NCBI GenBank assembly: GCA_037133115.1
Contig: JBAXOU010000001.1
Coordinates: forward strand, 5,888-69,887
From: Planctomycetota bacterium
GTDB lineage: Bacteria > Planctomycetota > Planctomycetia > Pirellulales > UBA1268
Direction: 5' to 3'
DNA: 64,000 nucleotides
Shown here: positions 22,758 through 39,918 of the stretch, piece after piece
Layout: each line of letters begins with the position of its first letter
Position numbering within the stretch: position 1 is the stretch's first letter
Made by a program: the position numbers and the translations under genes
Notes under the pieces: model-generated
What the model was told of the DNA's origin: nothing
Databases searched by the model: none
The model's input: the letters and a program-made list of their open reading frames with translations, nothing else

Positions 22758-23157
22758 GGGCGGGCTCGTCTTCTGCCAATCCGCGACAGCCGCGGCGGCC
22801 CGACGGGGGCATCGCCCCGACTAGGCTGCCACGGCGTCTTGGTCTTCGCGACCTCTCCAGAGAAAGATCGCCGCCATCGATGACACTCTGATGAGCAAAT
22901 CACGAGCAACTCGTGTGATTTCGATGAGAAAACGATGAGCCGGCACACCGAGCCCGCCGCGATTCCAGTCGCTCTACTCATACGGGTCACACGTGATCCT
23001 GAGGCGTTTACGCGGCGAGGGGCTGCCCATGCCCGTCGCCGGACGCTCGCTGCGGGCATCCTGCCCTGCGCTCGCTCGATGCTGACTTCGCTTCGCCATC
23101 CATGGCTTCGCTCATCAGCAACGCCGGCTCCCGGGCACGGGCAGTCCCTCGCGACCT

Positions 23158-23183
23158 CTCGTAGCACAGGTTGGCAACCTGTG
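23158..23183. repeat. Palindromic hairpin repeat, single copy (CTCGTAGCACAGGTTGGCAACCTGTG)
   Basis: 9-bp arms CACAGGTTG/CAACCTGTG around a central G. It is the reverse complement of the 26677 copies apart from the centre. Located in a convergent junction. Confidence 0.85.
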
Positions 23184-23412
23184 TGTCTTCATGGTTCGCC
23201 TTGGGATCACATGCGATTCCGGAAGGGTGAGCAGCCGGATCGGAGGCACGCGCAGAAGCCGGTGAGACTTGTGCCTCGCGGCGGTCGCTCCGAAGCGTTT
23301 GAGCAGAGAACTCACAAGTCCCGCCGGCGCCGAGCATGCTTCCGGCCGGCTGCGGATTTGCGAAGACGTGCGAGGTTCACGTGCGACCCGCATCAGACAC
23401 GGTCGCTGCCCA

Positions 23413-24066
23413 TCATGCCCGCATCGCCTCCGTGATCTGGGCCGCTGGTCCGATCCTTGCCAGCCGCCGGGTGCATGAAGCCGACACGGCGGCGATCCGC
23501 TCGAGGAGGCAGGCGAGTGCGTCGATCCGCATCACCGCATCACCATCCATCTCAGCCCGCACGACCGCATCGGCCACCTCGGCACGCACCTTGTCGCGGA
23601 CGACAATGGCTTCATTCCTGGCCTCTCCCACCGCATCCACCGCCGATGGATCCCACTCGTTTACGGCATCGACCATGAGCGACACGACCACATAGACGCA
23701 CGACACGAGGCGGTCGAGCGACGGCACCTCCAACTTGGCCAACGCCCACGCTACCTCGCCTCCGATCTCATCCGCGCGGGCCGCCGCAATGGCGGCCACC
23801 TGCAAGTCGGCGCAGCAGCCAAGCACAGCCGTGGCGAAGTGCAGATCCGACGCCACGGGCCGAAACCGCACGAGAAACTGCGTGGCCTCGGCCTGAACTT
23901 CCTGCGAGAGGCTCACGATGTCGTCGTGGAGGAGCGCCATCCGGCCGCTGGCAACCACCGGCGGCTCGGAGGCCGACGCGATCGTGGCGACATACGCGCC
24001 CTCCACCAAGGCTGCCAACAGGGCGATCCGCTCCCGCAACCGCTCGCGATGCTGGTCGATCTGCAT
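23413..24066 (-). CDS. PhoU-like regulatory protein (divergent)
   Basis: 217 aa, all-helical composition. RFRPVASDLHFATAVLGCCADLQ resembles the PhoU PvAsDLR motif, and the second half has LLERIAAVSA. The ERIGD motifs are degenerate. Confidence 0.5.
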   Translation of the reverse strand: MQIDQHRERLRERIALLAALVEGAYVATIASASEPPVVASGRMALLHDDIVSLSQEVQAEATQFLVRFRPVASDLHFATAVLGCCADLQVAAIAAARADEIGGEVAWALAKLEVPSLDRLVSCVYVVVSLMVDAVNEWDPSAVDAVGEARNEAIVVRDKVRAEVADAVVRAEMDGDAVMRIDALACLLERIAAVSASCTRRLARIGPAAQITEAMRA

Positions 24067-24181
24067 GCCGCGATCTCCATACCGAACTGCCGGTCACACC
24101 CGGAGGGAGGGTAGCGACCATTCGTGAGGATCGTGTTCGGGCCGACGCTCAACCCTGGGTACACTTGCCGCACGAGACTCC

Positions 24182-25021
24182 ATGATGTGGCGTGATCGTC
24201 GGGTGATCGTGGCGGGTGGCACGGCCGGGTTCGGCCTCGTGCTCGCGCGGCATCTTGCGCGGGCCGGGGCCCGAGTGCTCATCGTCGGACGCTCCTCGGA
24301 AGGCGTCCGCAACGCCCTTGAGACCTGCGAGCGGGCCGGCGAATCGACCGACGCCATGCACGGTGTGACGGCTGACCTTGGCAGGGCAGGGGAGGGCAAC
24401 CGGATCGCCGGCGAGGCGTTGCGACTGCTCGGCGGGGTGGACGACCTGTTCTGCTGCGTCGGTCGCTCCGGCCGCGCGAAGATCCTCGACACGACCGACG
24501 ATGACCTCCGCGACTATCTCGCGGCCAACCTCTTCGCCGCCACCGAACTCGTGCGGGCCGTGGCCGACGACGTCGCCGCCGCGAAGGGGCACGTGGTGTT
24601 CATCGGGAGCCTCGCCGGCAAGCTCGTCACGCCGTTCATGGGTCCTTACGCCGTCGCGAAGTTTGCGCTCGCCGCCTACGCCGACGCGGTCCGGCTCGAA
24701 CTCGAACCCCGCGGCGCGCACGTGCTCCTCGTCTCACCGGGGCCGATCCGCCGCGCGGCCGACGACCCGGCCACCGGCCGCGGGCCCGACCGCTACGCCG
24801 CCGACGCCCGCCGCGCGGGCCTGCCGGCGTCGGCCACCGCCCCCGGCGGCTCCGCGAGCCTGAAGCAGCTCGATCCCAACCGGCTCGCTGCGGCGGTGCT
24901 CGATTCCTGCCAGCGGCGTGACGCCGAACTCGTCGTGCCGCGAAAGGCCGCCCTGCTCGCGGGCCTAATCGCATGGCTCCCAAACGCGGGTCGCCACCTG
25001 CTGGCCCGGTTCGTCCGCTGA
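24182..25021 (+). CDS. Short-chain dehydrogenase/reductase (SDR)
   Basis: VIVAGGTAGFGLVLARHLARAG cofactor motif; IGSLAG and YAVAKFAL (YxxxK). Confidence 0.85.
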   Translation: MMWRDRRVIVAGGTAGFGLVLARHLARAGARVLIVGRSSEGVRNALETCERAGESTDAMHGVTADLGRAGEGNRIAGEALRLLGGVDDLFCCVGRSGRAKILDTTDDDLRDYLAANLFAATELVRAVADDVAAAKGHVVFIGSLAGKLVTPFMGPYAVAKFALAAYADAVRLELEPRGAHVLLVSPGPIRRAADDPATGRGPDRYAADARRAGLPASATAPGGSASLKQLDPNRLAAAVLDSCQRRDAELVVPRKAALLAGLIAWLPNAGRHLLARFVR

Positions 25022-25243
25022 CGAACCCGCCGCACGCGACACATTTGCGGAATCCCGGTATACCTACCGCAGTTCGCTCACGATCCTCGCGATCGGGTGC
25101 GATGTGAGGAAAAGCCGACCGGCCGCGAGGCCGCGGGCGAACCACGCTCGACACGGCGTCTGGTGGCGATTCACCCCACGCCTCACGGCGTTGGGCTTGC
25201 ACCAGAGACCTCCAGATCGTCATTCACGAAGGAGACCACGTCG

Positions 25244-26557
<1,314 letters not shown>

Positions 26558-26640
26558 CGCCATGAATCGGCGACTCGTGCGCGTCGTTCCGTTTCCGCAG
26601 CTGGCCGAAAACGGTGACAGCCACCTTGTGCCGGTCGATC

Positions 26641-26777
26641 GCACAGCTGTGCTACGAGAGGCACGACGCAGACTGACACAGGTTGACAACCTGTGCTACG
26701 AGAGGCCACGACGCAGACTGACACAGGTTGACAACCTGTGCTACGAGCAACAAACAGGTTGACAACCTGTGCTACTG
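26641..26777. repeat. Tandem array (44, 45, 31 nt units) of the palindromic hairpin repeat
   Basis: Units at 26647-26690, 26691-26735 and 26736-26766, plus a partial unit. Hairpins CACAGGTTGACAACCTGTG at 26677-26695 and 26722-26740, and ACAGGTTGACAACCTGT at 26754-26770, each followed by GCTAC. Confidence 0.9.
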
Positions 26778-29411
26778 CCCGGGGCGGATGACGGGCGCCG
26801 CGGCCCGTTCGATGGTGGCCCTGAGCCGTTGCTGCCGCTCTACGTCGGTCACCTTGCCACCCTCGGCGGTGGTGACGTGGAACGCGTCTACGACCTGGTC
26901 GAGGTAGGTGCCGATCTTCGCGGCCTGCACCGAAAGCCCCGCGTCGTAGATCGCCTTGGATACGCCGTAGAGAAGCCCCGGCGCGTCGTGGGCGAAGACC
27001 TCCAGGATCGTCGCCCGCTGGGAACTCTGGTTATCGAAGGTCACGCGGACGGGCTGCGCGGCGACCTTCACCTGCGGAGCGAACGGGTTCCACCGCCGCG
27101 CAAACTCCGGCGGATGGTCGCCGACGATGGCGGCACGGACGGCCGCGGCGATGTCGGCGAGCCTCTCGGCGGGCGGCTCGCCGGCAAAGTCGGGGTCGAC
27201 GACGGTGAAGTGATCGAGCACGTGGCCCGCCGCGAAGGTGTGAATGTCGGCGGCGAGGATCTCGAGCCGCTGGCTCGTGAGGCTGCCGGCGACCCGGTGG
27301 AAGATCCCCGACGCCGCCTGCTCACGGGTGCCGACCGACACCGCCACGGTCGACGTCTCGGGCTGCCAGCGGGCCGTCGTAAAAGCACCGGTTACCGGTA
27401 GCCGGGCCAGCCGCCCGAGTTCCTCGACGATCCGCTCCGGCGAGGTCGCTGCGAGGTAGGAGTCGGGGAGTTCGCGGGCCAGTCGCACCGCAGGGTCGTC
27501 GTCGCCACGGTCCTCGAGCAGGGCCGCGAGCCCGCGGCGGGCCCGATCGGCCGCGACGCTCGGCCCCTCGCCATCGAGGATCCCGAGCGCCTTGGAGAAG
27601 AGGGCCGCGAGCAGGTCAGACTTCCACTTCGTCCATGTGCCCGGACCGACCGCCGACACGTCGGCCGCGGTGAGCAGCGCGAGCATCCGCAGCACCTCCG
27701 GCGACCCCACGTCGCTGGCAAAGCCCGCGACGAGCGTGTCGTCGCCAATGTCGCGGCGAAACGCCAGGTGCGCCATCGCCAGGTGCTTGAGCACGAGAAA
27801 CTCCACGATCTCGATCTCGTCGGCCGGGAGCCCGAGCCGCTCGCCGACGTCGCGGGCGATCCTGGCGCCGAGCACGCTGTGGTCCTCGATGAAGCCCTTG
27901 CCGATGTCGTGCAGCAGCAGTGCCACCAGCAGCGGACGCTTTCGCCCGAGGGCCCGCCATTCCGCGCCGAGCCAGTCGTCAGCGCCGGCCAGCGCCGCCA
28001 CCCGCTCGATGGCCAGCAAGCAGTGCTCGTCCACCGTGTACTTGTGAAAACTGTTGAACTGCAGCAGGTTGCGGGCGTGCGCGAACGGCGGAATCAGGAT
28101 CTCGAGCACGCCCACATCGTGGAGCCAGCGAAGGGCTGCGGCGACCTTCGTGGGATGGGCAAAGAGGCCGAGGAACGCCTCGTTGGCCGGGCCGTCGACC
28201 GCGCGGGGCAGGTCGTGCACGCCAGCCCGCACCGCCTCCCACGTGTCGCGGGCTATCGGCATGTCGTAGAGCATCGAGAGCTCCGCCAGCCGCACGATCT
28301 CCCGCAGGCTGCCCGCCACCCGGGGCAGCTGCCCCGGCGACGCCGCCACCTCGGTCGGGCCCACGCGAAACGTGCCGTCGACGTGGTGACCGAGGAGCCC
28401 TTGGGCGAGCGACTCCATCGGCCCGCGGCGGCGGAGCCCGCGGAGGAGCGTGTCGACCGCCTGGGCGACCCGGCGGGTGTGGCCGAAGTATTCCCGCATG
28501 AACTGCTCGACGCCCAGCAGGCCGTCGCGGGTCTCGAGACCGCGGGCGTCAGCCATCCGCACCTGCTGGTCGCGGGTCAGCTCGTCGGCCGGCTTGCCCG
28601 CCGCGAGATGCAGATCGTTGCGGACCCGCATGAGAAACTCACGGGCATCGCGGAGCGCGTCGGCGTCGGCTCGGGAGATGCCGCCCACATGAGCGAGGTC
28701 GTCGAGGGTCTCGGCACCGTAGGCCAGTCGCCCAAGCCAGCGGACGAGCTGGATGTCGCGGAGCCCACCGGTCGACCGCTTCACGTTGGGCTCGAGCACG
28801 AACACCGTCCGCCCGTGCTTGTCAGCCTCGTCGCGGCGGGCCTCGACCAGCCGCTCGACATGCCGCCGCCGGCCCCGAGCGAGCGACGTTCGCAGCCGCT
28901 GCCGCAGCCTCCGCAGCGGCTCCTCTGCGCCGGCCAGCAGTCGGCAGTCGAGGAGCGAGCTCATGATCGTGGCATCGCCGCCCGCCAGCGTCACCGCCTC
29001 GGCCACACTCCGCACGCTTTGCCCCACCTCGAGCCCGGCGTCGAAGAGATCCTGGAGCAGCCGCCGGGCCACGTCGGCCACGACCGGGTCACTCCGGCCG
29101 TCGTGGAGGATCATCAGGTCGAGGTCGGACCAGGGCGCCATTTCGCCGCGGCCGAAGCCGCCGTGGGCGACGAGCGCCACCGTGGCCCGCATGCGGTTGG
29201 CATCGGCGGCGGGCAGGTCGCCGAGGATCGCCTCCCAGACGTCGCGGACGAGGGCATCGAAGAGTTCGCAGGCCAGCACCGCGACCGCCCAGCCATCGCC
29301 GCCGGCTGCATGCCGCTCGGCGATCCGGCGGCGGGCATCCACGGCCGCGGCCGCAGCGCGGGCCACCGTGGGTCGGGCCGCCAGTGGGCCGGCCGCTCCC
29401 CTGTCGCTCAC
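26772..29411 (-). CDS. glnD: [Protein-PII] uridylyltransferase / uridylyl-removing enzyme
   Basis: GGFGRGEMAPWSDLDLMIL nucleotidyltransferase motif; HD domain LLVALLLHDIGKG; two C-terminal ACT-like segments. There is no in-frame ATG after the upstream gene. GTG at 29411 gives a GTGA overlap and a typical 879-aa length. Confidence 0.85.
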   Translation of the reverse strand: MSDRGAAGPLAARPTVARAAAAAVDARRRIAERHAAGGDGWAVAVLACELFDALVRDVWEAILGDLPAADANRMRATVALVAHGGFGRGEMAPWSDLDLMILHDGRSDPVVADVARRLLQDLFDAGLEVGQSVRSVAEAVTLAGGDATIMSSLLDCRLLAGAEEPLRRLRQRLRTSLARGRRRHVERLVEARRDEADKHGRTVFVLEPNVKRSTGGLRDIQLVRWLGRLAYGAETLDDLAHVGGISRADADALRDAREFLMRVRNDLHLAAGKPADELTRDQQVRMADARGLETRDGLLGVEQFMREYFGHTRRVAQAVDTLLRGLRRRGPMESLAQGLLGHHVDGTFRVGPTEVAASPGQLPRVAGSLREIVRLAELSMLYDMPIARDTWEAVRAGVHDLPRAVDGPANEAFLGLFAHPTKVAAALRWLHDVGVLEILIPPFAHARNLLQFNSFHKYTVDEHCLLAIERVAALAGADDWLGAEWRALGRKRPLLVALLLHDIGKGFIEDHSVLGARIARDVGERLGLPADEIEIVEFLVLKHLAMAHLAFRRDIGDDTLVAGFASDVGSPEVLRMLALLTAADVSAVGPGTWTKWKSDLLAALFSKALGILDGEGPSVAADRARRGLAALLEDRGDDDPAVRLARELPDSYLAATSPERIVEELGRLARLPVTGAFTTARWQPETSTVAVSVGTREQAASGIFHRVAGSLTSQRLEILAADIHTFAAGHVLDHFTVVDPDFAGEPPAERLADIAAAVRAAIVGDHPPEFARRWNPFAPQVKVAAQPVRVTFDNQSSQRATILEVFAHDAPGLLYGVSKAIYDAGLSVQAAKIGTYLDQVVDAFHVTTAEGGKVTDVERQQRLRATIERAAAPVIRPGQ

Positions 29412-29947
29412 GGGTGAATCCACGGATCGTCGGCCACGCCCGCCTGGCGGTTGGCCACGCGGCCCAACACGAAGAGCAGATCGCCCAGCCGGTTGAGATA
29501 TTCGATCGCGTTTGCGGGGATCGTCGTGTCGGACTGAGACGCGAGCGTCACCACCCGCCGCTCGGCCCGTCGGCAGACCGTGCGGGCCACGTGAAACGCG
29601 GCCGCCAGCGGCGTGCCCGCCGGCAGGATGAAGCACTTCAGGGGATCGAGCGTCGCCTCGTGGCGGTCGATCTCCGTCTCGAGCGCCTGGACGTGGGACG
29701 CGGTGATCCGCTCCTCGGCGGTGTCGGGTGTGGCGAGCTGCGCGCCGAGGTCGAAGAGTTCGCACTGCACGCGGCGGAGCAGGGGGTCAAAGGCCGCCGC
29801 CACCGAGTGGGTGCGGGCCATGCCGAGATGACTGTTGAGTTCGTCGACGGTGCCGAAGGCCTCGATCCGCGCGTTGTCCTTGCGGACGCGCGGGCCACCG
29901 AAGAGCCCCGTCTCGCCGGCGTCGCCGGTCTTGGTATAGATCTTCAT
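29408..29947 (-). CDS. pduO: ATP:cob(I)alamin adenosyltransferase, PduO type
   Basis: MKIYTKTGDAGETGLFGG...RIEAFGTVDELNSHLG. AGGAGG RBS upstream of ATG 29947. The tracked ORF starts earlier, at 30139. Confidence 0.9.
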   Translation of the reverse strand: MKIYTKTGDAGETGLFGGPRVRKDNARIEAFGTVDELNSHLGMARTHSVAAAFDPLLRRVQCELFDLGAQLATPDTAEERITASHVQALETEIDRHEATLDPLKCFILPAGTPLAAAFHVARTVCRRAERRVVTLASQSDTTIPANAIEYLNRLGDLLFVLGRVANRQAGVADDPWIHP

Positions 29948-29997
29948 CGCACGAGTGCCTCCTGTGCCATCGAACAACGAACGTATACTGGAACGCC

Positions 29998-31164
29998 ATG
30001 CCCCAAATATGCAACTGGACCGCCACAGCCGTGATCCTCGCCGCGGCCGCGGCCGCAGGAATGAGAGCAGGTGGCGGCGAGGAGACCACCCCCGCAGTGG
30101 ACCAGGGCCAGTCCGCCCTCGAGGCCCGCTTTCTCTCACTCCCCGTGCTCGTCACCGACGGGATGACGAAGGCGGGCGAGGGGTACTTCGCCCCTGACGG
30201 CAGCCGCATCTGCTACCAGGCGGTGCCGCCGGGCAGGCAGTTCTACGAGATCTTCGTGCAGGACTTCGACCCGTCGGCCCCGCGGCCCACGGTGCCTCGG
30301 CGGGTGAGCTCCGGCCGCGGCCGAACGACGTGCAGCTGGTTCTCACCCGATGGCACGCGACTGCTCTTCGCCTCCAGCCACCTCGACCCCGACGCCGAGG
30401 CCACGGAGGCGGCCGCCCGGGCGCAGGCCGAGGAAGACGCCCGGGCGGGCCGGCGGCGGCGATACCAGTGGGACTTCGATCCCTGGATGGACATCTTCAC
30501 GTCGCGGCTGGACGGCGGCGATCTCGTCCGGCTCACGACTGAAAAAGGCTACGACGCCGAGTGCTCATTTTCGCCAGACGGATCGCGGGTGCTCTTTGTG
30601 AGCGACCGCGACGGCGATCCCGACGTGTATGTGATGGACGCCGACGGCTCGAACGTACGGCAGTTGACGAACGAGCCCGGCTACGACGGCGGCCCGTTCT
30701 TCTCGCCCGACGGCGCGTGGATCGCATACCGCACCGACCGGCTCGAGAAGGATCTGCTCCAGATCCATGTGATGCGGGCCGACGGCTCGGGCGACGTGGC
30801 GGTCACGGCGGGCCAGGGCGTTCGCTGGGCGCCCTTCTGGCATCCGACGCGGCCGTGGCTGATCTGGACCGGCGCCGACCACTCCGACCCCACCGCGCGG
30901 CCGAACTACGATCTCTGGATCGCGGCCTGGGAGGTCGCCGCGGATGGCTCATTCACGGCGGGCGAGCCGCTGCGGATCACCGACCATCCGGGTGCCGACG
31001 TGCTGCCCGCTTTCTCACCCGATGGGTCGCTCCTGATGTGGACGGCGAGCCGCGGCGAAGGCTCCGGCGGCCGCGGCCCCACGAGCCAACTCTGGGTGAG
31101 CCGACTCGATCTCGACGCGGTCGCACAAGACCTGCCGCCTCCGATGAAAGGCACGACACCATGA
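29998..31164 (+). CDS. PD40/TolB-like beta-propeller repeat protein
   Basis: Repeated FSPDG(T/S)R(L/V)LF...SDRDGDPDVYVMDADGSNVRQLT and FFSPDGAWIAY motifs; N-terminal signal-like TATAVILAAAAAAG. Confidence 0.8.
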   Translation: MPQICNWTATAVILAAAAAAGMRAGGGEETTPAVDQGQSALEARFLSLPVLVTDGMTKAGEGYFAPDGSRICYQAVPPGRQFYEIFVQDFDPSAPRPTVPRRVSSGRGRTTCSWFSPDGTRLLFASSHLDPDAEATEAAARAQAEEDARAGRRRRYQWDFDPWMDIFTSRLDGGDLVRLTTEKGYDAECSFSPDGSRVLFVSDRDGDPDVYVMDADGSNVRQLTNEPGYDGGPFFSPDGAWIAYRTDRLEKDLLQIHVMRADGSGDVAVTAGQGVRWAPFWHPTRPWLIWTGADHSDPTARPNYDLWIAAWEVAADGSFTAGEPLRITDHPGADVLPAFSPDGSLLMWTASRGEGSGGRGPTSQLWVSRLDLDAVAQDLPPPMKGTTP

Positions 31165-31985
31165 CGACTCCTGCACCGCTCGACCGCACGGTCGCGATGA
31201 TCGGCGGAGGCCAGATGGCCCTCGCCCTGGCCGAGGGTTTCTGTCGTGCCGGGCTCCTCGCGCCGGCCGACATCACCGTCTACGACCCGCACCCGCCGGC
31301 GCGGGAACGGCTGGCGGCCAGGATGCCCGGCATCGTCTTCGCGGAATCGGTGCGGGCCGCCGCGGCTGCCGCAGGGGTGGTGTTTCTCGCCGTGAAACCG
31401 CAGCAGGCCCAGGTCGCGTGCCAGGAGATCACCGGTCGCCTACGTGCGGATGCGGTGCTGGTGTCGATTGTTGCCGGCCTCCCCGCCGCGTCGCTGGCGG
31501 CGATGGCGGGCGTGCCCCGCGTGATCCGCGTGATGCCCAACACGCCCTGCCTCGTGGGCCACGGGGTGTCGGTCGTCTGCCAGACAGCCGACGTTTCCAC
31601 CGCGGCAGCCGCGCGGGTTCGCGAGTTGCTCGGCGCCGTGGGCCACGTGCACGAGGCCGACGAGTCGCAGATGAACGCGGTGACGGGCCTGTCGGGCTCG
31701 GGCCCGGGCTTCGTGGCGCTGCTCGTGGAGGCGCTGGCCGACGGCGGCGTGAAGGCGGGCCTACCACGGCCGCTGGCGCTGGCCCTGGCGGTGCAAACGC
31801 TCTCGGGCACGGCCGCGCTCCTGGAGCAGACGGGCGAGCATCCCGCGCAGATCAAGGACCGCGTCTCGAGCCCGGGCGGCACGACGATCGCAGGGCTCGC
31901 CGTGCTGGAGCAGCGTGGCGTCCGCGGCGCGCTCATCGACGCCGTCGTGGCCGCCGCCACCCGCGCGAAGGAACTCGGCGGGTAA
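31161..31985 (+). CDS. proC: Pyrroline-5-carboxylate reductase
   Basis: VAMIGGGQMALALAEG, VMPNTPCLVGHG, GLSGSGPGFV, VSSPGGTTIAGL. ATGA overlap with the upstream stop. Confidence 0.9.
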   Translation: MTTPAPLDRTVAMIGGGQMALALAEGFCRAGLLAPADITVYDPHPPARERLAARMPGIVFAESVRAAAAAAGVVFLAVKPQQAQVACQEITGRLRADAVLVSIVAGLPAASLAAMAGVPRVIRVMPNTPCLVGHGVSVVCQTADVSTAAAARVRELLGAVGHVHEADESQMNAVTGLSGSGPGFVALLVEALADGGVKAGLPRPLALALAVQTLSGTAALLEQTGEHPAQIKDRVSSPGGTTIAGLAVLEQRGVRGALIDAVVAAATRAKELGG

Positions 31986-31994
31986 GGGCCTTGA

Positions 31995-32068
31995 GTAGGT
32001 GCAGGTTGTCAACCTGCACCAGCAGCGGCGTCGGTGGTGATTCGGCACAGGTTGAAAACCTGTGCTAC
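31995..32068. repeat. Two palindromic hairpin repeats
   Basis: GTAGGTGCAGGTTGTCAACCTGCACC (31995-32020; 11-bp arms) and GCACAGGTTGAAAACCTGTGCTAC (32045-32068; 9-bp arms). Located in the convergent junction after proC. Confidence 0.9.
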
Positions 32069-32131
32069 GGGGAACGATGCAGCGAGGGGCAGCCCCGAGC
32101 ACCGGCACGACGCGAGCTCGCCATCAGGCAC

Positions 32132-32362
32132 TCAGCCGCGGCGGCTCTTCCCAGGCTTGCTGGCCTTCGTGACGACCTTCTTCTTCACCACGCGCGAGGC
32201 CTTTTTCTTGCCAGCCTTCGTCGCCGGGGCGGTCGTGGCCTTGCTCGCCTTGCCCTTGCCCGACTTCTTCGCCGCCGACGTGCGACCGCCGAAGATCGAA
32301 TCCCAACCCTCGGAGTATGAGTTCGAACTCCCCACGCGGATCACTGACATGACTGCCTCCAT
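32132..32362 (-). CDS. Small lysine-rich basic protein (histone-H1-like tail), hypothetical
   Basis: MSVIRVGSSNSYSEGWDSIFGG followed by a K/A/S/T-rich tail (AAKKSGKGKASKATTAPATKAGKKKASRVVKKKVV). The start could instead be the second ATG (MSVI). Confidence 0.5.
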   Translation of the reverse strand: MEAVMSVIRVGSSNSYSEGWDSIFGGRTSAAKKSGKGKASKATTAPATKAGKKKASRVVKKKVVTKASKPGKSRRG

Positions 32363-32439
32363 ATCTTGAGCGGGTCACCGCGAAGCAGCCTTCGGGCCCG
32401 CGGTCAGAAATGGTTCGTAGCGGTTGCCGGCAGGCAGTG

Positions 32440-32814
32440 TCAATCCGACACGACCACCAGCGACAGCCTGCCCCAGGCCGGCGGGAGCGGCATACGGGTT
32501 TCCGAGTTTGGGCCCGAAGTCACTCCACGAGCGCCGTCGGGAGCGACGTCAACCACCACCAAAAGGTTGCGGTCGGCGATCATGCCCGTCACGTCGCACT
32601 CCATGGCTCCCGGCCCGGCCTCACGCCAAGCCAGGGCGTGGTCGTTGAGCGTGGCATTCCGCCACACCCCCGGCGAGTCCGCCGCCGCGCAGACAAGCAC
32701 GAGCCGATCGGCCTTCTCGACGCCACTCGGCCGCCCAAAACGGCGAACCCACGCCCGCATTGCTGCCGTGGGCGGCTCCCAGGCCGTGCCCAGGTGGATC
32801 GCATGGTTCGGCAT
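32440..32814 (-). CDS. Hypothetical protein (124 aa)
   Basis: The ORF starts 4 nt after the stop of the upstream oxidoreductase. Protein-like composition (W, H, D, N present). No recognised motif. Confidence 0.5.
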   Translation of the reverse strand: MPNHAIHLGTAWEPPTAAMRAWVRRFGRPSGVEKADRLVLVCAAADSPGVWRNATLNDHALAWREAGPGAMECDVTGMIADRNLLVVVDVAPDGARGVTSGPNSETRMPLPPAWGRLSLVVVSD

Positions 32815-32818
32815 CGGG

Positions 32819-33838
32819 TCACTCCGGGATCACCACGCCACGCCCCGTCGTCTCGCCGCAACGCATGCGGTCGGCCCAGTCACCCACATCCTCGAGCCGC
32901 AGCCGTGTCACCGGAAAGCGGCCGGCGATGGCGGGCCAGAACGAAGCAAGCCGCTCCCAGAGCAGGGCCCGCTCGGCCTGCGTGGGCAGGCTGGCGGCAT
33001 CGATGCCGGCGAGCGTCACGCCGCGGAGGATGAAGGGATGCACAGTGGTGACGAGGTCGGCTCCCCCCGCCATACCAATCGCCGCGACGCCGCCGCCCGG
33101 CCGCACGGCCCTGAGCACTTCCGCGAGCAACGGGCCGCCGACGGTGTCGACCACGCCAGCCCAGCGGCTCGTCACGAGCGACTTCGGCGTCGGATCGCGG
33201 ATCGCATCGGGCGTGACCACCTCGGCGGCGCCGAGGGTGCGGAGGACGTCCGTCGCCGAGGCCTTCCGCGAACAGGCGACGACCCGGCGGCCCGCGGCGG
33301 CCAGCGCCGCGACCGAGAGCATCCCCACACCGCCACTGGCGCCGGTGACGAGCCAGGCTTCGTCAGACGTGGCATGCCGCGGTGACACGATCGCCTCCAG
33401 TCGGTCGCAGGCGAGCAGGGCGGTGAGACCAGCGGTGCCGAGCGCCATCGCCTCGTCGGCTGCGAGCGACGCGGGCCGCGGGAGCACGGCGGCTGCCGGC
33501 ATCCGCACGAAGCTGGCAAACCCGCCATCGCGGACCTCGCCCATGCCATTGCCGGTGACCAGCACCGGAGTGCCCGCCGCCAGCGATGCGGTTGACGCGG
33601 CAACCACACCAGCCGCGTCGATTCCAGGCACGAGCGGCGACATCCGCATCACGCCCGGATGCCCGGCGGAGCAGAGGGCGTCCTTATAGTTGAAGCCGGC
33701 CGCCTCGACCCGAACGACCACGTCGTCGTTCGCCATCGACGCAGCGGGATCCCAGCCCAAGGGCTCGATCCCCGCGGTCACGGCCCCGTCGGGCATCCGC
33801 CGCACCCGCCAGCACTTTTCCCGCGCCGTCGTCGTCAT
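32819..33838 (-). CDS. NADPH:quinone/enoate oxidoreductase, YhdH/YhfP (AcuI-like) MDR family
   Basis: VVVRVEAAGFNYKDALCSAG, PLVPGIDAAGVV, LVTGASGGVG. Confidence 0.85.
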   Translation of the reverse strand: MTTTAREKCWRVRRMPDGAVTAGIEPLGWDPAASMANDDVVVRVEAAGFNYKDALCSAGHPGVMRMSPLVPGIDAAGVVAASTASLAAGTPVLVTGNGMGEVRDGGFASFVRMPAAAVLPRPASLAADEAMALGTAGLTALLACDRLEAIVSPRHATSDEAWLVTGASGGVGMLSVAALAAAGRRVVACSRKASATDVLRTLGAAEVVTPDAIRDPTPKSLVTSRWAGVVDTVGGPLLAEVLRAVRPGGGVAAIGMAGGADLVTTVHPFILRGVTLAGIDAASLPTQAERALLWERLASFWPAIAGRFPVTRLRLEDVGDWADRMRCGETTGRGVVIPE

Positions 33839-33899
33839 CTATACTCCGTCTCTCGCCCGGATCGTACCGCGGCCGCCCCCGACCACACCACAGGAGTCG

Positions 33900-34238
33900 A
33901 TGCCGACGATGGGAAACGCCCTCGAGTTCACCGATGACAACTTTCAGAGCGACGTACTCGGATCCTCCGTGCCGGTCCTGGTGGACTTCTGGGCGCCGTG
34001 GTGCGGCCCTTGCCGGATGATCGGCCCGGTGATCGAGGAACTGGCGGCCGAGAACGCCGGCACGTTCAAGGTGGGCAAGGTCAACGTCGACGAAAGCAGC
34101 AAGCTGGCGATGACCTACAACGTGGCCAGCATCCCCACGATCATGATCTTCAGCGGCGGCAAGCTGGTGCAGCAGTTCATGGGCGTGCAGTCGAAGACGA
34201 AGCTCCAGCAGGCCCTCGACGAGGCGAAGTCGGCCTAG
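33900..34238 (+). CDS. trxA: Thioredoxin
   Basis: VLVDFWAPWCGPCRMIGP active site; 112 aa. CAGGAG RBS before ATG 33900. The tracked ORF starts at 33690. Confidence 0.95.
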   Translation: MPTMGNALEFTDDNFQSDVLGSSVPVLVDFWAPWCGPCRMIGPVIEELAAENAGTFKVGKVNVDESSKLAMTYNVASIPTIMIFSGGKLVQQFMGVQSKTKLQQALDEAKSA

Positions 34239-34244
34239 CCGGCG

Positions 34245-35762
34245 TCACGCCCCCGCCGTCGCGAGCTCCTTGGCCTCGTCGGCCGTGCCGCGCCACCGCT
34301 CCACGGTGGCGTCGTCCACGAAGCCGGCGAGGTCGAAGTTGCTCCCGGGCTGCCGCAGCTTCTCGACCGCCTTGGCCTCGATCTGCCGCACCCGCTCCCG
34401 CGTGACTGCGAAGATGGAGCCGACCTCCTCGAGCGTGTAGGCGTAGCCGTCCGCCAGGCCGAATCGCAAACGAAGAATCTCCCGCTCGCGATAGGAGAGC
34501 GAGTCGAGCGCCTTCGTGATCGTGCCCTGGAGCGACTGCTGGTTGACGGCCTTCAGAGGGTCGATCTCGCTGCGATCGCTGACGAAGTCGCCCACCGCGC
34601 CGTCGTCGGACTCGCCCAGGGGCTGATCGAGTGAGATCGGCTTTCGCGACATCCGGCAGATGCACTCGGCCTCCTCGACGGCGAGGTTCGAGAGCGTTGC
34701 CAACTCCTCCACGGTCGCATTGCGGCCGTGCTCCTGGAGAAAGTCCCGCTGCAGGTTCCGCATCCGCGTCATTGCGTCGACCATGTGCACCGGCACGCGG
34801 ATGGTGCGGCTCTGGTCGGCGATGGCCCGGGTGATCGCCTGCCTGATCCACCAGGTCGCATAGGTCGAGAACTTGAACCCGCGGGCGTGCTCGAACTTGT
34901 CGACCGCCCGCATCAGCCCCGAGTTCCCCTCCTGAATCAGGTCGAGGAACGTGAGCCCACGGTTGCGATACCGCTTGGCGATCGAGATCACGAGCCGGAG
35001 GTTGCCGGCGGCGAGATCGCGCTTCGCGGCGTCGTACCGCTGCAGGAGATCCTCCAGCGTGGTCAGCCGCCGCTCGAGGGTGCGGCGGCTTTCGCGGGTC
35101 GTCAGCAGGATCCGCCGCTGCTCGGCCGTGAGCTGCTGTCGGGCCACCGCCTCGGCTGTCTGATGGAGCGACCGCAGTTGGCCGCGGATCGACTCATAGC
35201 GATCCGCCATGCCCCGCAGCTGCCGCAGCAGCGGATAGAGCCGCTGGATCCGGAGGTGCATTTCCTCGACCAGGCGGACGGCCTTGTTTCGCTGCCGGAC
35301 GAGCCGCCGCCAGGCGGCGCGCCGCACCTCGAGCGAGTTGCCCCGCGACATCGCGACCCGAAACAGCCGACCCTTCTCCTGCTCGATCCGCTTGAGCGTG
35401 ACGAGGTTGGGCCCGAGCCGCTTCAGCAGCCGCTTCTTTTCGCGGGTGTTGGTGACCGAGACCTCGATCGTGCGGTCGAGCCGGAGCGTGCCCGCCTGCA
35501 CCCGCTCCAGCAGCTGCACCGCGCCCGAGAGCACGAAGTCGTTGGCGAGCAGCGTGCGGCGAAACCGCCGCCGCCACGTCTCGATCTCGCGGGCGTGGGC
35601 CACCTCGGTCTCGCGGTTGAGCAGCGGGATACCGCCCATCTGGAGGAGGTAGAGCCGGATCGGGTCGTCGATCACGGCGGTGATCCGGCGGGCAGTGCGG
35701 GGCCGGGCCGGGCCGATCGGCTTCCGGCGCGGGTCGTGGCTGGCGGTGGCGGAATGACGCAT
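34245..35762 (-). CDS. RNA polymerase sigma-70 factor, RpoD/SigA family
   Basis: [16 protein letters not shown] (region 1.2), [74 protein letters not shown] (region 4.2). Start at the ATG of MRHSATAS. No acidic region 1.1 is evident. Confidence 0.9.
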
Positions 35763-36134
35763 GGGGGCCCCGGTGGCGAAAGGAGGACGTGCCGGCGGCC
35801 TGGTGGCAACCTGTGAGGGACACGGCAGAGGAGTCCCCATGCAGATCCGGTGCCAACCGCCCCAGAACCGACCTCGAAATCGTCGAACTGCTGTTTTTCC
35901 AGCGTTATGCGGCCCCTCTCGCCGCCACCAGCCCCGCCGGGGCGTCGCCGGGAGGCGACATGGCGACGACGGCGCGTCGACAGGATGCACCGTGGCGACG
36001 GAGGCGGCTCAAGATCGCTCGGCCGCCCGCACGAATAGCCAAGGGCGGCATGCCTGTGGGGAGCGATATACTCTGAGGATGACGATTGTGCCGGTGGGGC
36101 GGGCCGAGATCGCCTCCGGTCGGCAAGAACCATC

Positions 36135-37703
36135 ATGACGTACGCGCTGCTCGGCCTGATCGCCTTGGTGCTGCTCTTGGGGCTCGTCGCCTTTGGCGTC
36201 GGCCACAAGCGGTGGAGTTGGGGCACGTTGATCGCGGCCTTCCTGGTTCTGCTCACGGCAGCGGGCTATCTGTACGTCGCCTCGAGGTTTGCGGCGTACG
36301 AGTGGTCGTGGGCGAACTTCGTGCGCTCGAAGCAGGTGCAGCTCGCCAAAGTTCGCGACGCCCTCGTCCCCGATCCGGCAGCCGGCGGCAGGCTGAAGGG
36401 GATGGCTGGCGGGGACGGGGAACTCCAAGCCAAGCCGGTCGCCGAACTCGTCAAGGAGCGGGAACGCTGGCAGCGGGCCCTCGACAGGATCGACACCTGG
36501 CGCGACCGCTCGTGGGCGAAGGCGTCGTTCACGCCCCCGAAGGCCGACGGAGCCACCGGGAAACTCGAGATCCCGTTCGCCACCGCGGCGCCGCCCGCAG
36601 CCGAAGGGGATGCCGCCGCCCCCGAACCGCCGAAGCCTGGCAATCCGCCACTCGATCCGGGAACCACCGTCTACCTCTTCGAAGACGTTCCCGCCCAAGA
36701 GGGAGGCCGCTACCTCGGCGCCTTCCTCGTCCAAGCTGCCGATGTCGACGCGCCGGCGGGCCACTACGTGTTCACGGTCGAACCGACCGAGCAGCGCGAC
36801 GCCTACGACACCGCCGTCTGGGGCCGCGCGTACGATTCAGTGACGGTGTATGACACGCTCCCGACGGATCGCTGGCTTGCGTTCTCGAAGACGACCGCCC
36901 CCGAAGGCGACGCGCCGCTCGTGCCGGAGCCGACGCGGCTCACCCTCGAGCAGGTCGAGGAACTGCTCGAGGAACGAGACCGCCAGCCGACATTCCTGGC
37001 GGAGTTCGAGAAGCACGAGACCGTGGCCGACAAGGACGAATGGGAACGGATTCGCAAGCGGCTCGACGACGGCGACGAGCCGCCGGGCAGCTACTGGGCT
37101 CTCGTGAAGTTCAAGGAGTCGGCCGTCATCGCCGAAGGCATCAAAGACGAGGCCGCCGCGCGGAGTTTCGAGCCGGGCGAGACCGCCGCGTGTGACCTGC
37201 AGCGAGCGTTCGCCCTCGCCGACGAGGGCAAGGCGACGATCGAGGAGGTCCGCTACCGTCGCCGGCTCCAGGATGCCGGCACGTTCATCCACGGCTCCCG
37301 GATCTTCCGCGGCACCGGGGCCGACGCGAGCAAGGAGAGCATCGCGGCCGATGGGGTGGCTGGGCTCCTGGCGGTTCTCCGGCGGGAAATCGCCGCGCTC
37401 GACGCCTCGACCACCCGGCTGGCCGAGTCACGGGCCGACGTCGAGGCGGAACTGAAGGCCACCGCGGACCGCAGGCGGCGGCTCGCCGCCGACAAGGAGC
37501 TCTGGGACCGCGATGCCGCCGCCGCCGAACGGACGGCCGAAGGCTTTGGCACGCAGGTGGCGAGGACCAAGGAACGGCTGGCGGCCGCGGAGCAGGCGAT
37601 CGCGGCCTACGCGAACGAGCTCCGCGAGGCCGTCGGACGGCTCGTGGAGCGGATCGACGCCGTGGCTCCCGCCCCGACCCAGCCGGCAGCAGCCACGCCG
37701 TAG
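36135..37703 (+). CDS. Membrane protein with two N-terminal TM helices and a C-terminal coiled coil, hypothetical
   Basis: LLGLIALVLLLGLVAFGV and LIAAFLVLLTAAGYLYV. The C-terminus is rich in heptad-like A/E/R/L. The antisense ORF 36009..36764 is rejected. Confidence 0.7.
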   Translation: MTYALLGLIALVLLLGLVAFGVGHKRWSWGTLIAAFLVLLTAAGYLYVASRFAAYEWSWANFVRSKQVQLAKVRDALVPDPAAGGRLKGMAGGDGELQAKPVAELVKERERWQRALDRIDTWRDRSWAKASFTPPKADGATGKLEIPFATAAPPAAEGDAAAPEPPKPGNPPLDPGTTVYLFEDVPAQEGGRYLGAFLVQAADVDAPAGHYVFTVEPTEQRDAYDTAVWGRAYDSVTVYDTLPTDRWLAFSKTTAPEGDAPLVPEPTRLTLEQVEELLEERDRQPTFLAEFEKHETVADKDEWERIRKRLDDGDEPPGSYWALVKFKESAVIAEGIKDEAAARSFEPGETAACDLQRAFALADEGKATIEEVRYRRRLQDAGTFIHGSRIFRGTGADASKESIAADGVAGLLAVLRREIAALDASTTRLAESRADVEAELKATADRRRRLAADKELWDRDAAAAERTAEGFGTQVARTKERLAAAEQAIAAYANELREAVGRLVERIDAVAPAPTQPAAATP

Positions 37704-37799
37704 CGTTTTCCGCGGCATCGACGGCAGCCGCCGCATTCGGCTACCATTCTCGGGCTGGCCGCTTCCGGGCCGGAAAAGCCCCGCAGGACGTTCTCAGAC

Positions 37800-39074
37800 A
37801 TGACCGCAGCAGCCCGCGTCGGGCACACCAACACCCACCGCCTCCGCAAGGCGGTCCACCACAACAAGCTCGCCAGCAAGCGGGGGATGCTCGAGCGGAT
37901 GTTCACGCTCTGGTTCCGCGGCTTCGTCTACAACCAGATCTGGGAGGATCCGCGGGTCGACGCCCAGGCGCTGCGGATGGGCCCGGACTCGAGCATCCTC
38001 ACGATCTCGAGCGGCGGCTGTAACGTCCTCAACTACCTCATCCACCGGCCGAAGCGGATCGTGGCGATCGACCTCAACGCCAACCACATGGCGCTGACAC
38101 GACTCAAGCTCAAAGCCCTGGAGCGGCTGCCCGACTACGAGACCTTCTACAAGTTCTTCGGCTACGGACGGCATCCCGACAACGTTGCCAACTACAACCG
38201 CTACCTGAGAGACGCGCTCGACGCCGACACGCGAGCGTTCTGGGAGACCACCGACTGGCCGGGTAAGGCGGTGGGGCCCAAGCGGATCAACTACTTCAAG
38301 ACCGGCTTCTACGAGAAGGCGAAGCTCGGCCAGTTCTTCCGCGTGGTGCACGGCCTGGCCCGCCGCATGGGCCGCGACCCCGGGCAGTTGCTCACCGCGA
38401 AGACGGTCGCCGAGCAGGAGCGGATTTTCGACGAGCAGTATTCGGCGCTGTTCGACAATCGCATCGTCCGCTGGATGGGCCGCCAGCCGGTCGCCGTCTA
38501 CAGCCTCGGGATCCCGCCGAGCCAGCACGCGGCCATGCTCGAGGAGCATGACGGCGATGGCAGTCGACTGTTCGACATGTACAAGCAGCGGCTGCGGCGG
38601 CTCGCCTGCGGCTTCCCGCTCGACGACAACTATTTCGCCTGGCAGGCCTTCGGCCGCCGCTACGATCACGAGGGCCGCAAGGCGCTTCCCGACTACCTCA
38701 AGCGGGAAAACTACGAGACGATCAAGTCGGCGGTCGGCTGCGTGGAGACGCACATCGCGTCGCTCGCCGACCAGATTCGCCACGAGAAGCCGGGCAGTCT
38801 CAACTCGTTCATCCTCCTCGACAGCCAGGACTGGATGCCCCCGCCGGTGATCGACGAACTCTGGACGGAGATTTCCAAGGTCGGCGCTCCGGGAACGCGG
38901 GTGATCTTTCGTACGGCCGGCGAAGCCTCGCCGATCGAGAAGGCGCTCTCGCCAGCCACCATGGCCCGGTTCCGTTCGCACGCCGCCGAGGCCAGGGCCC
39001 TGAGTGCGCAGGACCGCTCCGCGATCTACGGCATGTTCCACCTCTACGAGCTTGCGGAACCGGCAGCGTCATGA
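37800..39074 (+). CDS. btaA: BtaA-like S-adenosylmethionine:diacylglycerol 3-amino-3-carboxypropyl transferase (DUF3419 family)
   Basis: FVYNQIWEDPRVDAQALRMGPDSSILTISSGGCNVLNYL...VAIDLNANHMALTRLKL matches the DUF3419/BtaA N-terminal pattern. Confidence 0.8.
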   Translation: MTAAARVGHTNTHRLRKAVHHNKLASKRGMLERMFTLWFRGFVYNQIWEDPRVDAQALRMGPDSSILTISSGGCNVLNYLIHRPKRIVAIDLNANHMALTRLKLKALERLPDYETFYKFFGYGRHPDNVANYNRYLRDALDADTRAFWETTDWPGKAVGPKRINYFKTGFYEKAKLGQFFRVVHGLARRMGRDPGQLLTAKTVAEQERIFDEQYSALFDNRIVRWMGRQPVAVYSLGIPPSQHAAMLEEHDGDGSRLFDMYKQRLRRLACGFPLDDNYFAWQAFGRRYDHEGRKALPDYLKRENYETIKSAVGCVETHIASLADQIRHEKPGSLNSFILLDSQDWMPPPVIDELWTEISKVGAPGTRVIFRTAGEASPIEKALSPATMARFRSHAAEARALSAQDRSAIYGMFHLYELAEPAAS

Positions 39075-39745
39075 GCGAGTCCGGTGCCGCCGACCAGGCT
39101 GTGGCGATGGATCAGATGTACCGCGTCACGCGGCATATCTACGACGTCACGCGAGCCTACTACCTGCTCGGCCGCGACCGGATGCTGGCCAAGGTGGTCA
39201 CGAATCCGAGCACGGCCACGCTCGAAGTGGGCTGCGGCACGGCCCGCAACCTGATCAAGCTTGCCCGCCGGGCCGAACCCGGGCTGCTCTGCGGCCTCGA
39301 CGCCTCCCAGGAGATGCTCGACACAGCGGCGGCCAGCATAGCCCGTGCGGGCGTGCCGGCCGCGGGCCACGAGCGAATCCGGCTCCGGCAGGGGCTCGCG
39401 GAGCGCCTCGACGCGAAGACGATGTTCGGCCGGGACGAGCCCTTCGACACGATCTTCTTTTCGTACTGCCTGTCGATGGTGCCCACGTGGCCGGGGGCGA
39501 TCGAGGCGGCGATGGCCAACCTGAAGACGGGGGGCCACCTGGTGATCGTCGACTTCTGGGACCAGAAGGATCTGCCGGGAGTCTTCGCCGCCGGCCTGAA
39601 GAAGTGGCTCTCGCTCTTCCACGTGCACTATCGCCCGGAGGTGCACGACGCTCTCGCGGCCCTCGGCACGTCAGGCCGCGCCGACGTGACGTTCGAGTCG
39701 GTGCAGAAGCGTTACGCCTACATCGCGTCGCTCAAGAAGCGCTGA
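39071..39745 (+). CDS. btaB: BtaB-like SAM-dependent N-methyltransferase
   Basis: YDVTRAYYLLGRDRML then LEVGCGTARNL (SAM motif I). ATGA overlap with the btaA stop. Confidence 0.75.
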   Translation: MSESGAADQAVAMDQMYRVTRHIYDVTRAYYLLGRDRMLAKVVTNPSTATLEVGCGTARNLIKLARRAEPGLLCGLDASQEMLDTAAASIARAGVPAAGHERIRLRQGLAERLDAKTMFGRDEPFDTIFFSYCLSMVPTWPGAIEAAMANLKTGGHLVIVDFWDQKDLPGVFAAGLKKWLSLFHVHYRPEVHDALAALGTSGRADVTFESVQKRYAYIASLKKR

Positions 39746-39756
39746 CGCCACTCCCC

Positions 39757-39918
39757 GTAGCACAATCCCGTAGGTGCAGGTTGGTAATCTGCCCATGAAG
39801 CCGACGTGGGAAATCATCCGCAGGTTGCCAACCTGCGGCTACTGGGTTCGCCCTCGCTTCCCGATCCGCAGGTTACCAACCTGCGGCTACTCGTAGGTGC
39901 AGGTTGGTAACCTGCACC
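39757..39918. repeat. Cluster of four palindromic hairpin repeats plus a half-site remnant
   Basis: Remnant GTAGCACAA (39757-39765). GGTGCAGGTTGGTAATCTGCCC (39773-39794, degenerate). CCGCAGGTTGCCAACCTGCGGCTAC (39818-39842). CCGCAGGTTACCAACCTGCGGCTAC (39866-39890). GTAGGTGCAGGTTGGTAACCTGCACC (39893-39918). Confidence 0.9.

Follow-up and report, generated by a model that had tools for sequence, protein, structure and literature searches.

Gene junctions and repeats in the window

The analysed DNA, referred to as the window, was a 64-kb stretch of contig JBAXOU010000001.1 (assembly GCA_037133115.1) from a Planctomycetota bacterium of the order Pirellulales. Short hairpins with the core CAGGTT-N3-AACCTG were present at four of its gene junctions. 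They are very probably GTAG-tagged repetitive extragenic palindromes (REPs) that occur singly, as inverted heterodimers resembling bacterial interspersed mosaic elements (BIMEs) or REP doublets forming hairpins (REPINs), and as a short tandem array. The G+C content of the window was 68% and its proteins included members of the SBP_bac_10/N_methyl and PATR families. Near-identical contigs originated from freshwater-lake metagenomes, and the most similar metagenome-assembled genomes (MAGs) in the genome collection were freshwater Planctomycetota.

Gene calls based on codon statistics matched the public calls on the near-identical contig L001, save three genes added by hand. By these calls, and by the public calls on the near-identical contigs, all four loci were located between convergent genes. 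Locus 1 was flanked by an FAD oxidoreductase gene and a 217-aa gene without annotation, locus 2 by a xylose-isomerase-like gene and glnD, locus 3 by proC and an open reading frame of 72–76 aa, and locus 4 by a methyltransferase gene (beside DUF3419) and a 278-aa hypothetical gene. A preliminary description of this DNA, made from the letters alone, had named most of these neighbours. Its assignments of glnD, proC, the FAD oxidoreductase and the methyltransferase held. Its PhoU-like and xylA labels did not, as the former protein had no Pfam match at E ≤ 1 and the product of the latter gene was merely a xylose-isomerase-like TIM barrel.

Among 23 gaps of at least 40 bp, five were convergent, and these included all four loci (hypergeometric p = 5/8855). 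No copies were found in the tighter convergent junctions 12268/12291, 34238/34245, 43079/43101 and 57365/57413, as reported earlier. At locus 1, the upstream gene ended at position 22757; the hairpin lay some 400 bp beyond this end, midway through a gap of 655 bp, and was part of a larger repeat. With the repeat clusters subtracted, gaps 2–4 measured only about 30–80 bp, similar to the convergent junctions that lack repeats. These gaps are therefore wide on account of their repeats, rather than having drawn repeats because they were wide.

Copy number and architecture of the hairpins

The exact core CAGGTTNNNAACCTG (CAGGTT-N3-AACCTG) was detected nine times in the window, compared to 0.00 expected from 100 dinucleotide shuffles. 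The exact cores started at positions 23167, 26679, 26724, 26755, 32002, 32048, 39821, 39869 and 39900. A tenth copy at 39777 had one core mismatch and was perfect (GTAGGTGCAGGTTGGTAACCTGCAC) in the strain contig L002, which was 99.5% identical. An eleventh copy at 26642–26655, with its centre deleted (CACAGCTGTGCTAC), was picked up by a covariance model. This model, R1, was built from 108 distinct copies and used to scan the whole window with filters off. Matches with E < 0.2 were confined to the four loci and the next best match had E = 1.5, which gave 11 members and no more. The earlier count of about ten hairpins at four loci thus stands, with nine exact copies, one decayed and one truncated.

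Window members were 23–26 nt long and all intergenic. In 10 of 10 full-length copies, the tetranucleotide GTAG preceded CAGGTT by 2–3 nt on one strand only, and on the opposite strand this tag read CTAC after the stem. The one-sided GCTAC/GTAGC flank of the preliminary description was confirmed. The three self-complementary stem versions that it had proposed could also be read in the window copies. The CA/TG type (GTAG-CA-CAGGTT-NNN-AACCTG-TG) was represented by five copies and the truncated copy at 26642–26655, the CCG/CGG type (GTAG-CCG..CGG) by two copies and the GTG/CAC type (GTAG-GTG..CAC) by three copies, one of them decayed. Model R1 favoured the GTAG strand in every full-length copy by 2–22 bits and by more than 10 bits in seven of the nine exact copies. 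When the window was scanned for GTAG preceding a perfect hairpin of whatever sequence, 11 elements were returned; nine of them were from the CAGGTT family, compared to about one in shuffles. The CAGGTT hairpins are the sole GTAG-tagged hairpin family in the window. The following copies were annotated, with their basis:

23161–23183, + strand: REP of the CA/TG type (GTAG-CA-CAGGTT-GGC-AACCTG-TG); exact core; R1 39.3 bits (+) vs 21.9 bits (−)
26642–26655, − strand: centrally deleted REP (CACAG joined to CTGTG-CTAC), first unit of the 45-bp array; sequence; R1 match at 26636–26658, E = 0.049
26677–26699, − strand: REP of the CA/TG type; exact core; R1 40.9 bits (−) vs 21.6 bits (+)
26722–26744, − strand: REP of the CA/TG type, second tandem-array unit; exact core; Tandem Repeats Finder (TRF); R1
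26753–26775, − strand: REP with a shortened stem; exact core; R1 22.1 bits
31995–32020, + strand: REP of the GTG/CAC type, starting 9 nt after the proC stop codon (31983–31985); exact core; R1
32045–32068, − strand: REP of the CA/TG type, inverted partner of 31995–32020; best R1 match, 44 bits
39757–39764, + strand: REP stub, orphan tag and stem start (GTAGCACA); sequence
39770–39794, + strand: decayed REP of the GTG type with two substitutions; R1 E = 0.13; intact in L002
39818–39842, − strand: REP of the CCG/CGG type, inverted partner of the decayed copy; exact core; fold; R1
39866–39890, − strand: REP of the CCG/CGG type; exact core; R1
39893–39918, + strand: REP of the GTG/CAC type; exact core; R1

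The four loci differed in their arrangement. Locus 1 was a singleton. Locus 2 was a direct tandem array with a 45-bp unit composed of the hairpin and a 22-nt linker, and TRF reported it at 26647–26747 with period 45 and 2.3 copies. Locus 3 was an inverted pair of two different types (F...R), with the tags facing outward and 24 nt between the copies; its first member was identical in strains L001 and L003. Locus 4 comprised the stub, located 11 nt after the methyltransferase stop codon and kept in all strains, followed by four copies in the order F-R-R-F. The tags of its last two copies, 39866–39890 and 39893–39918, faced each other at a distance of 2 bp, and the loop of the former varied between A and G among strains. 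At locus 2, the stop codon of glnD was the TAG within the GTAG tag of the REP at 26753–26775 (CTA on the + strand, 26772–26774), which indicates that the repeat abuts or has replaced the original gene end.

Single hairpins folded with −10 to −13 kcal/mol and z-scores of about −3; the locus 1 copy reached −13.1 kcal/mol with z = −3.2. Adjacent inverted copies at loci 3 and 4 could pair into long hairpins with z-scores of −3 to −7.7. The pair at locus 3 yielded z = −3.0 to −4.3, and the long hairpin of the decayed copy with the copy at 39818–39842 yielded z = −6.2. A tRNA-like arm with a 5-bp stem and a 7-nt loop (TT-NNN-AA) was considered for the core and rejected, since ARAGORN detected no tRNA or tmRNA and the full stem of 8–9 bp co-varied.

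Distribution across genomes and stem covariation

One genome per species was scanned with the pattern GTAG-N0-1-YR-CAGGTT-NNN-AACCTG-YR. At least 107 stretches matched, and by our own estimate a scan of the whole collection would yield a few tens of matches by chance. Among the matches listed, many genomes were multi-copy. The MAG deposited as 'Ca. Kuenenia stuttgartiensis' AE-24oct19-66 held 46 copies in the blocks retrieved. Other multi-copy hosts were the Planctomycetota MAG ZE-3NOV15-plancto6, a Pirellulales MAG, about a dozen Chloroflexota chromosomes, a Cytophagales MAG and members of Verrucomicrobiota, Armatimonadota and Acidobacteriota. The contigs of isolate AE-24oct19-66 (CAMBSN01; L010, L023, L047, L061 and others) had a G+C content of about 68% and shared repeat families with the window. 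Kuenenia has a G+C content of about 41%, so the Kuenenia label of this MAG is probably wrong.

Across all genomes, the tag was present in 167 of 183 copies, with a spacing of 2 nt in 145 and of 3 nt in 22. The top six stem pairs were invariant and the bottom three co-varied. In 156 distinct tagged copies, pair −1/+1 was G-C in 83, A-T in 67, G-T in six and A-C in none. Pair −2/+2 was complementary in 152 of these copies, and pairing outside −3/+3 was at chance level. In the covariation analysis, 96.8% of the cells were paired and 64 cells were double-changed, compared to 21 ± 8 in shuffles, and none of the 500 shuffles reached this number. The lower-stem covariation, for which the preliminary description had proposed such an analysis, is therefore statistically supported. 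The loop was strand-specific. Read GTAG-first, it was TTC in 36 copies, TGC in 25, TGT in 18 and GTC in 15, and TCC and similar loops also occurred; the reverse complements were counted 0–4 times.

The matched changes, from which the preliminary description concluded that selection acts on the structure, are no evidence that the host selects for an RNA fold. The sub-types which they delimit form heterodimers with one another, and the changes also fit the need of a transposase for a perfect single-stranded DNA stem in which the bottom three pairs are free (PMC8266576). The changes can be read as sub-type divergence combined with a propagation filter, in which perfect stems alone would be substrates.

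The palindromes might instead be double-stranded operators or binding sites for a dimeric regulator or nucleoid protein, one of the roles considered earlier. The core is a perfect inverted repeat with 6+6 invariant bp, as expected for such a site, and E. coli REPs bind IHF, gyrase and Pol I (cited in PMC6006769). However, the covariation preserves complementarity and not a fixed half-site sequence, and the strand asymmetry of tag and loop is unexpected for a symmetric dimer site. The sites were also located at gene 3' ends rather than promoters, no sigma-70-like promoters were found in the region, and the copies formed tandem or inverted arrays of two to four per locus. A binding-site function of this kind is very improbable.

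Association with transposase genes

Genes for REP-associated tyrosine transposases (RAYTs) were located between or beside the same hairpins in six loci of other organisms (L060, L018, L020, L114, L115 and L116), in agreement with the RAYT link suggested in the preliminary description. In the Cytophagales locus L060, a 212-aa gene was positioned between two GTAGCACAGGTTTTCAACCTGTG arrays. Its product matched Pfam Y1_Tnp and scored 81.6 bits on NCBIfam model NF047646 'REP-associated tyrosine transposase', which has a cutoff of 80 bits. On the same model, a homologue between two REP copies in Planctomycetota (L018) reached 80.5 bits, and a truncated homologue after two REP copies in Chloroflexota (L020) reached 74.6 bits. 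The best solved-structure match of the associated transposase was E. coli TnpA-REP (4ER8), a distant relative only (E = 0.0025). A profile of the three proteins retrieved 5511 homologues, many of which were named 'REP element-mobilizing transposase RayT' by the Joint Genome Institute (JGI). For three of three homologues looked up (L114, L115 and L116), this hairpin was present on the flanks, tagged with GTAG or GTGG.

In L114 and L116, the CAGGTT hairpin often alternated with an inverted partner, CACAGGAT..ATCCTGTG, with a compensated difference in the upper stem. The same pattern was observed at positions 3800–5200 of L060 with the inverted partner CACAGACT..AGTCTGTG, where the upper stem was likewise compensated. 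The alternating hairpins at these RAYT genes are heterodimeric REP doublets.

The CAGGTT core was found in only four to five of 80 metagenomic RAYT loci. The homologues inspected in detail were flanked by GT[AG]G-tagged hairpins with a 7–9-bp stem and a 3–4-nt loop of other sequence. The shared build with differing sequence indicates that the architecture belongs to the protein family and CAGGTT to a clade within it. Co-evolution of RAYTs and their REPs is a described pattern (PMC6006769, PMC8266576). None of the 80 metagenomic loci was a RAYT locus of 68% G+C flanked by a CAGGTT REP, and none resembled the window organism. A query with an E. coli YafM sequence, which matched 4ER8 but had no Pfam match, gave just weak phmmer matches, all outside the window.

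A single REP core appears to accompany a single RAYT clade through several phyla. The inheritance of REPIN-RAYT systems is described as mainly vertical; in contrast, the CAGGTT core recurs in MAGs of many phyla. RAYT subclasses with a patchy multi-phylum distribution have been described (PMC6006769). The finding bears on the debate whether REP-RAYT systems are symbionts passed on vertically or elements that spread horizontally. In a more speculative reading, the same core at RAYT genes in many phyla would mean that the REP-RAYT pair spreads horizontally as a unit.

Two further observations concerned the transposase genes. The RAYT homologues P0056, P0026, P0098, P0016, P0014 and P0023 contained the peptide (G)TGFQPV, which corresponds to an in-frame REP, ACAGGTTTTCAACCTGTG. 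As a translated REP, the peptide indicates that the REP has inserted into the gene of its own transposase, a trait described for TnpA-Y1 subclass 2.4 (PMC6006769). In L018 (JACRIM010000039, 1308–3701), the RAYT flanked by two REPs was located in-frame within purH, between the MGS and AICARFT parts, with 798 open codons. An independent protein, P0108 (56% identity over 249 aligned residues; RAYT and the start of AICARFT), had the same RAYT-to-AICARFT junction. The sequences suggest a conserved in-frame nesting of the transposase in the housekeeping gene purH.

The hairpins could alternatively be subterminal ends of decayed IS200/IS605-type insertion sequences, or of miniature derivatives resembling palindrome-associated transposable elements (PATEs), and not RAYT-type REPs. 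The two enzyme families are related, and in both the hairpin is preceded on its 5' side by a tetranucleotide guide (PMC6006769). In L071, L093 and L061, a 140-nt module (see below) was enclosed by two direct-orientation hairpins, as are the ends of IS200/IS605 elements. The associated proteins, however, scored 19–21 bits on NF033573 (cutoff 55), yet were at or near the cutoff of the RAYT model. Their genes were located amid arrays of many hairpins in a REPtron-like layout. Searches of the window and the retrieved loci with RAYT/Y1 profiles revealed no IS200-type TnpA; TnpB was not searched for. An IS200/IS605 origin is extremely unlikely.

Position of the hairpins relative to genes

In the relatives, 126 hairpin clusters were assigned to 47 tandem, 35 convergent and 10 divergent junctions, eight intragenic positions and 26 contig edges. 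The baseline of gaps of at least 40 bp was 75 convergent, 265 co-directional and 89 divergent. Clusters were therefore enriched at convergent junctions (38% vs 17% baseline) and depleted at divergent ones. The confinement to convergent junctions stated in the preliminary description applied to the window (four of four loci) but not to the relatives, where tandem, divergent and intragenic copies also occurred. The preference for convergent junctions is an enrichment, not a restriction. GTAG-tagged REPs are mostly located between convergent or co-directional genes (PMC3733652).

This placement raises the alternative that the hairpins are primarily host-selected RNA elements at gene 3' ends, which terminate transcription in both directions or stabilise the upstream mRNA by blocking 3'-to-5' exonucleases. 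Gene 3' ends bordered all four window loci on both sides, copies at loci 3 and 4 began 9–12 nt past stop codons, and the convergent enrichment and divergent depletion in the relatives point in the same direction. The hairpins are stable (z about −3) and the dimers far more so (z −6 to −7.7). Published REPs are credited with stabilising mRNA and with effects on termination (PMC3733652). The termination role, which the preliminary description had put forward, found no support. No T/U tract followed the stems, apart from a weak T-run in one of 11 copies (26754–26770, minus strand), and terminator-like sites in the region numbered six compared to 6.3 expected from shuffles. Canonical intrinsic (Rho-independent) terminators were rejected because of the lacking T-tracts. 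The one-sided GTAG and the strand-specific loop would have no role in a simple RNA hairpin barrier, and in co-directional junctions the GTAG strand was sense 26 times and antisense 28 times. The same sequence also occurred beside RAYT genes and within coding regions, and an RNA role alone would leave identical sequences in many phyla unexplained. A primary RNA function is quite unlikely. An RNA role at 3' ends could also be secondary and layered on the REP identity. In E. coli, REPs near stop codons can reduce translation, and the mRNA upstream of a REP can be protected by it. In a secondary role, the hairpins may affect the 3' ends of the mRNAs from the flanking genes.

Comparison with known REP systems

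The REP-like reading of the preliminary description is borne out by the GTAG tag, the strand-specific loop, the perfect stem, the dimers and the RAYT association elsewhere. Every tested sequence feature of the REP class was found, namely a short multi-copy extragenic stem-loop, a one-sided GT[AG]G, clustering as dimers and a preference for certain junctions.

The closest parallel in architecture and size was the REP of Stenotrophomonas maltophilia, which consists of GTAG, an 8-bp perfect stem and a 3-nt loop, comprises 23 nt and is cleaved by its RAYT in vitro (PMC8266576). Its substrate for the enzyme is the folded single strand; binding is lost with the reverse-complement loop, and the first loop base is essential (PMC8266576). 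Correspondingly, the loop of the window family was strand-specific and began with T or G. In S. maltophilia, the bottom 3 bp can be changed freely and a stem mismatch abolishes cleavage (PMC8266576). The three tolerant pairs match the three varying pairs in the window family, in which compensatory changes keep the stems perfect. The RAYT motifs DHxH, WQ and Y..ANP resembled those of the L018 and L020 proteins. In the window family, the tag was positioned 2–3 nt from the invariant core. Stem sequence and host phylum differed from S. maltophilia. REPtron Sm belongs to RAYT group 3/TnpA-Y1 subclass 2.5 (PMC8266576), whereas the RAYT clade associated with the CAGGTT hairpins has REPs inside its own gene, the subclass 2.4 trait mentioned above.

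The super-family of GTAG-tagged REPs comprises 24 families (Di Nocera et al. 2013, PMC3733652) and has been reported in Planctomycetes, Chloroflexi and Verrucomicrobia (PMC3733652). It shares with the window family the one-sided GTAG, GTGG variants (in O. terrae, and in L114, L115 and L117 of the present set), stems of 6–9 bp, dimers in opposite orientation and the preference for convergent and co-directional junctions. In both, a copy is occasionally found in-frame inside a gene, and some families are regularly tied to other palindromic tracts. The present host, an uncultured freshwater planctomycete, is outside the organism set of that study. The string CAGGTT-N3-AACCTG was absent from the text and supplements of PMC3733652, with the consensus figure outside the text search. 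The CAGGTT family may be a new member; GTAG REPs, GTGG variants, intragenic copies and the association with palindromes were already known (PMC3733652).

The REPs and BIMEs of E. coli with TnpA-REP (YafM; 4ER8) resembled the window family in the GTAG guide and hairpin, the extragenic 3' location, and the inverted alternation of sub-types with linker motifs between them. E. coli REPs, unlike the short and perfect window hairpins, are longer and imperfectly palindromic, and they contain an essential bulge. The REPINs of Pseudomonas fluorescens (PMC3116915) consist, as at loci 3 and 4, of two inverted REPs with a short spacer that form one long hairpin. Their mobilisation is attributed to a single-copy RAYT (Bertels & Rainey 2011, PMC3116915). 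In contrast to these REPINs, the arms in the window were usually of different sub-types, locus 2 was a direct array and locus 1 a singleton.

Proposed mechanism and its weighing

A mechanism can be proposed from the architecture of the hairpins and from homologous systems. The perfect stem of 8–9 bp with its 3-nt loop would fold on single-stranded DNA. A RAYT (TnpA-REP, HUH/Y1) encoded elsewhere in the genome would recognise the hairpin together with its first loop base and with the GTAG 'guide' located at the 5' foot, and would then cut and rejoin nearby, so that copies spread. Copies would persist where insertion harms least, at gene 3' ends, and this persistence would lead to a pile-up in convergent gaps, which would thereby be widened. 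The three stem versions may be sub-types like Y, Z1 and Z2 of E. coli, differing in the bottom three pairs tolerated by the enzyme and pairing in dimers. A RAYT is presumably encoded in the genome of the window, and the hairpin copies there are, or were in the past, presumably mobile.

Several points weigh against the REP interpretation. Searches with the L060 protein and a hidden Markov model (HMM) of 120 homologues revealed no RAYT in the 64-kb window, contigs L001–L006 or the loci of the AE66 and ZE MAGs. Six near-identical strains (99.2–99.8% identity) had point changes only at loci 3 and 4 and no presence/absence polymorphism of the copies they cover, and thus revealed nothing that points directly to recent mobility. 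Because GTAG and the YR flanks were already part of the collecting pattern, the tag frequency and part of the pairing at −1 and −2 are inflated. Copies within a genome share descent, so the counts do not represent independent events and overstate the number of these. Gene calls in the other genomes originated from a crude in-house caller. The covariation is nevertheless held to be real on account of the shuffle controls and the absence of A-C pairs. For a comparison with empty sites, the window proteins were searched against all retrieved loci with tblastn, and no orthologous neighbourhoods were found in these loci.

For annotation, the hairpins should be labelled as REP/BIME-type repeats and not as regulators or terminators, and the gaps as repeat-expanded. 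The analysis adds a well-documented GTAG-REP family for uncultured freshwater Planctomycetota. The repeats may serve as strain-typing markers for these MAGs and are a warning that such repeats break short-read assemblies. The RAYT nested in-frame in purH and a REP-linked structured module of 140 nt are of specialist interest.

A structured module and other repeats near the hairpins

The 140-nt module is the least ordinary item in the region. It adjoined the REP of locus 1, and a remnant was detected at locus 3:

23014–23150, + strand: structured module of about 140 nt with a three-way junction, ending about 10 nt before the locus 1 REP
32069–32100, − strand: collapsed module remnant, closing-stem foot GGGGCTGCCCC, adjoining a locus 3 REP; nhmmer match of 32046–32095 to module positions 129–179

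The module at 23014–23150 consisted of a 25-bp closing stem (GGGGCTGCCC.TGCCCG / CGGGCA.GGGCAGCCCC) and two inner hairpins, and folded with a minimum free energy of −83.2 kcal/mol (z = −5.0). It was 84–90% identical to copies in two other freshwater planctomycete MAGs. About 18 copies were found with nhmmer in the retrieved loci of the MAGs CAMBSN01, QWPO01 and JBJTPO01. All were intergenic, in either orientation and each within about 40 nt of a REP. About 12 of 16 copies adopted the same three-way junction, and compensatory changes were seen in the P2 and P3 stems. The module had no Rfam match. Candidate identities are a structured RNA, a single-stranded DNA element and a passenger borne by REPs.

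Together with the locus 1 REP, the module forms a composite of about 170 nt at 23014–23183. It is rather doubtful that this composite is a new REP-associated element, either a miniature transposon whose structured cargo is mobilised by RAYT between direct REPs or a multi-copy structured RNA exploiting REPs. If true, either reading would set the composite apart from an incidental neighbouring palindrome.

In Rfam 15, no window match reached the gathering score, and at E ≤ 10 locus 1 and the repeat near 25 kb gave chance miRNA matches only. Two further repeats were observed near the hairpins. An imperfect hairpin of about 120 nt at 23231–23353 followed the locus 1 REP in the same 655-bp gap. It had only chance-level miRNA-like matches in Rfam and about 84% identity with L047 (CAMBSN01). 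A second dispersed repeat of about 90–120 nt, without an Rfam match, was located at 25082–25205 in the gap upstream of the xylose-isomerase-like gene. It was 79–87% identical to copies in L079, L095, L069, L045, L044 and L078, several of which adjoined REPs.

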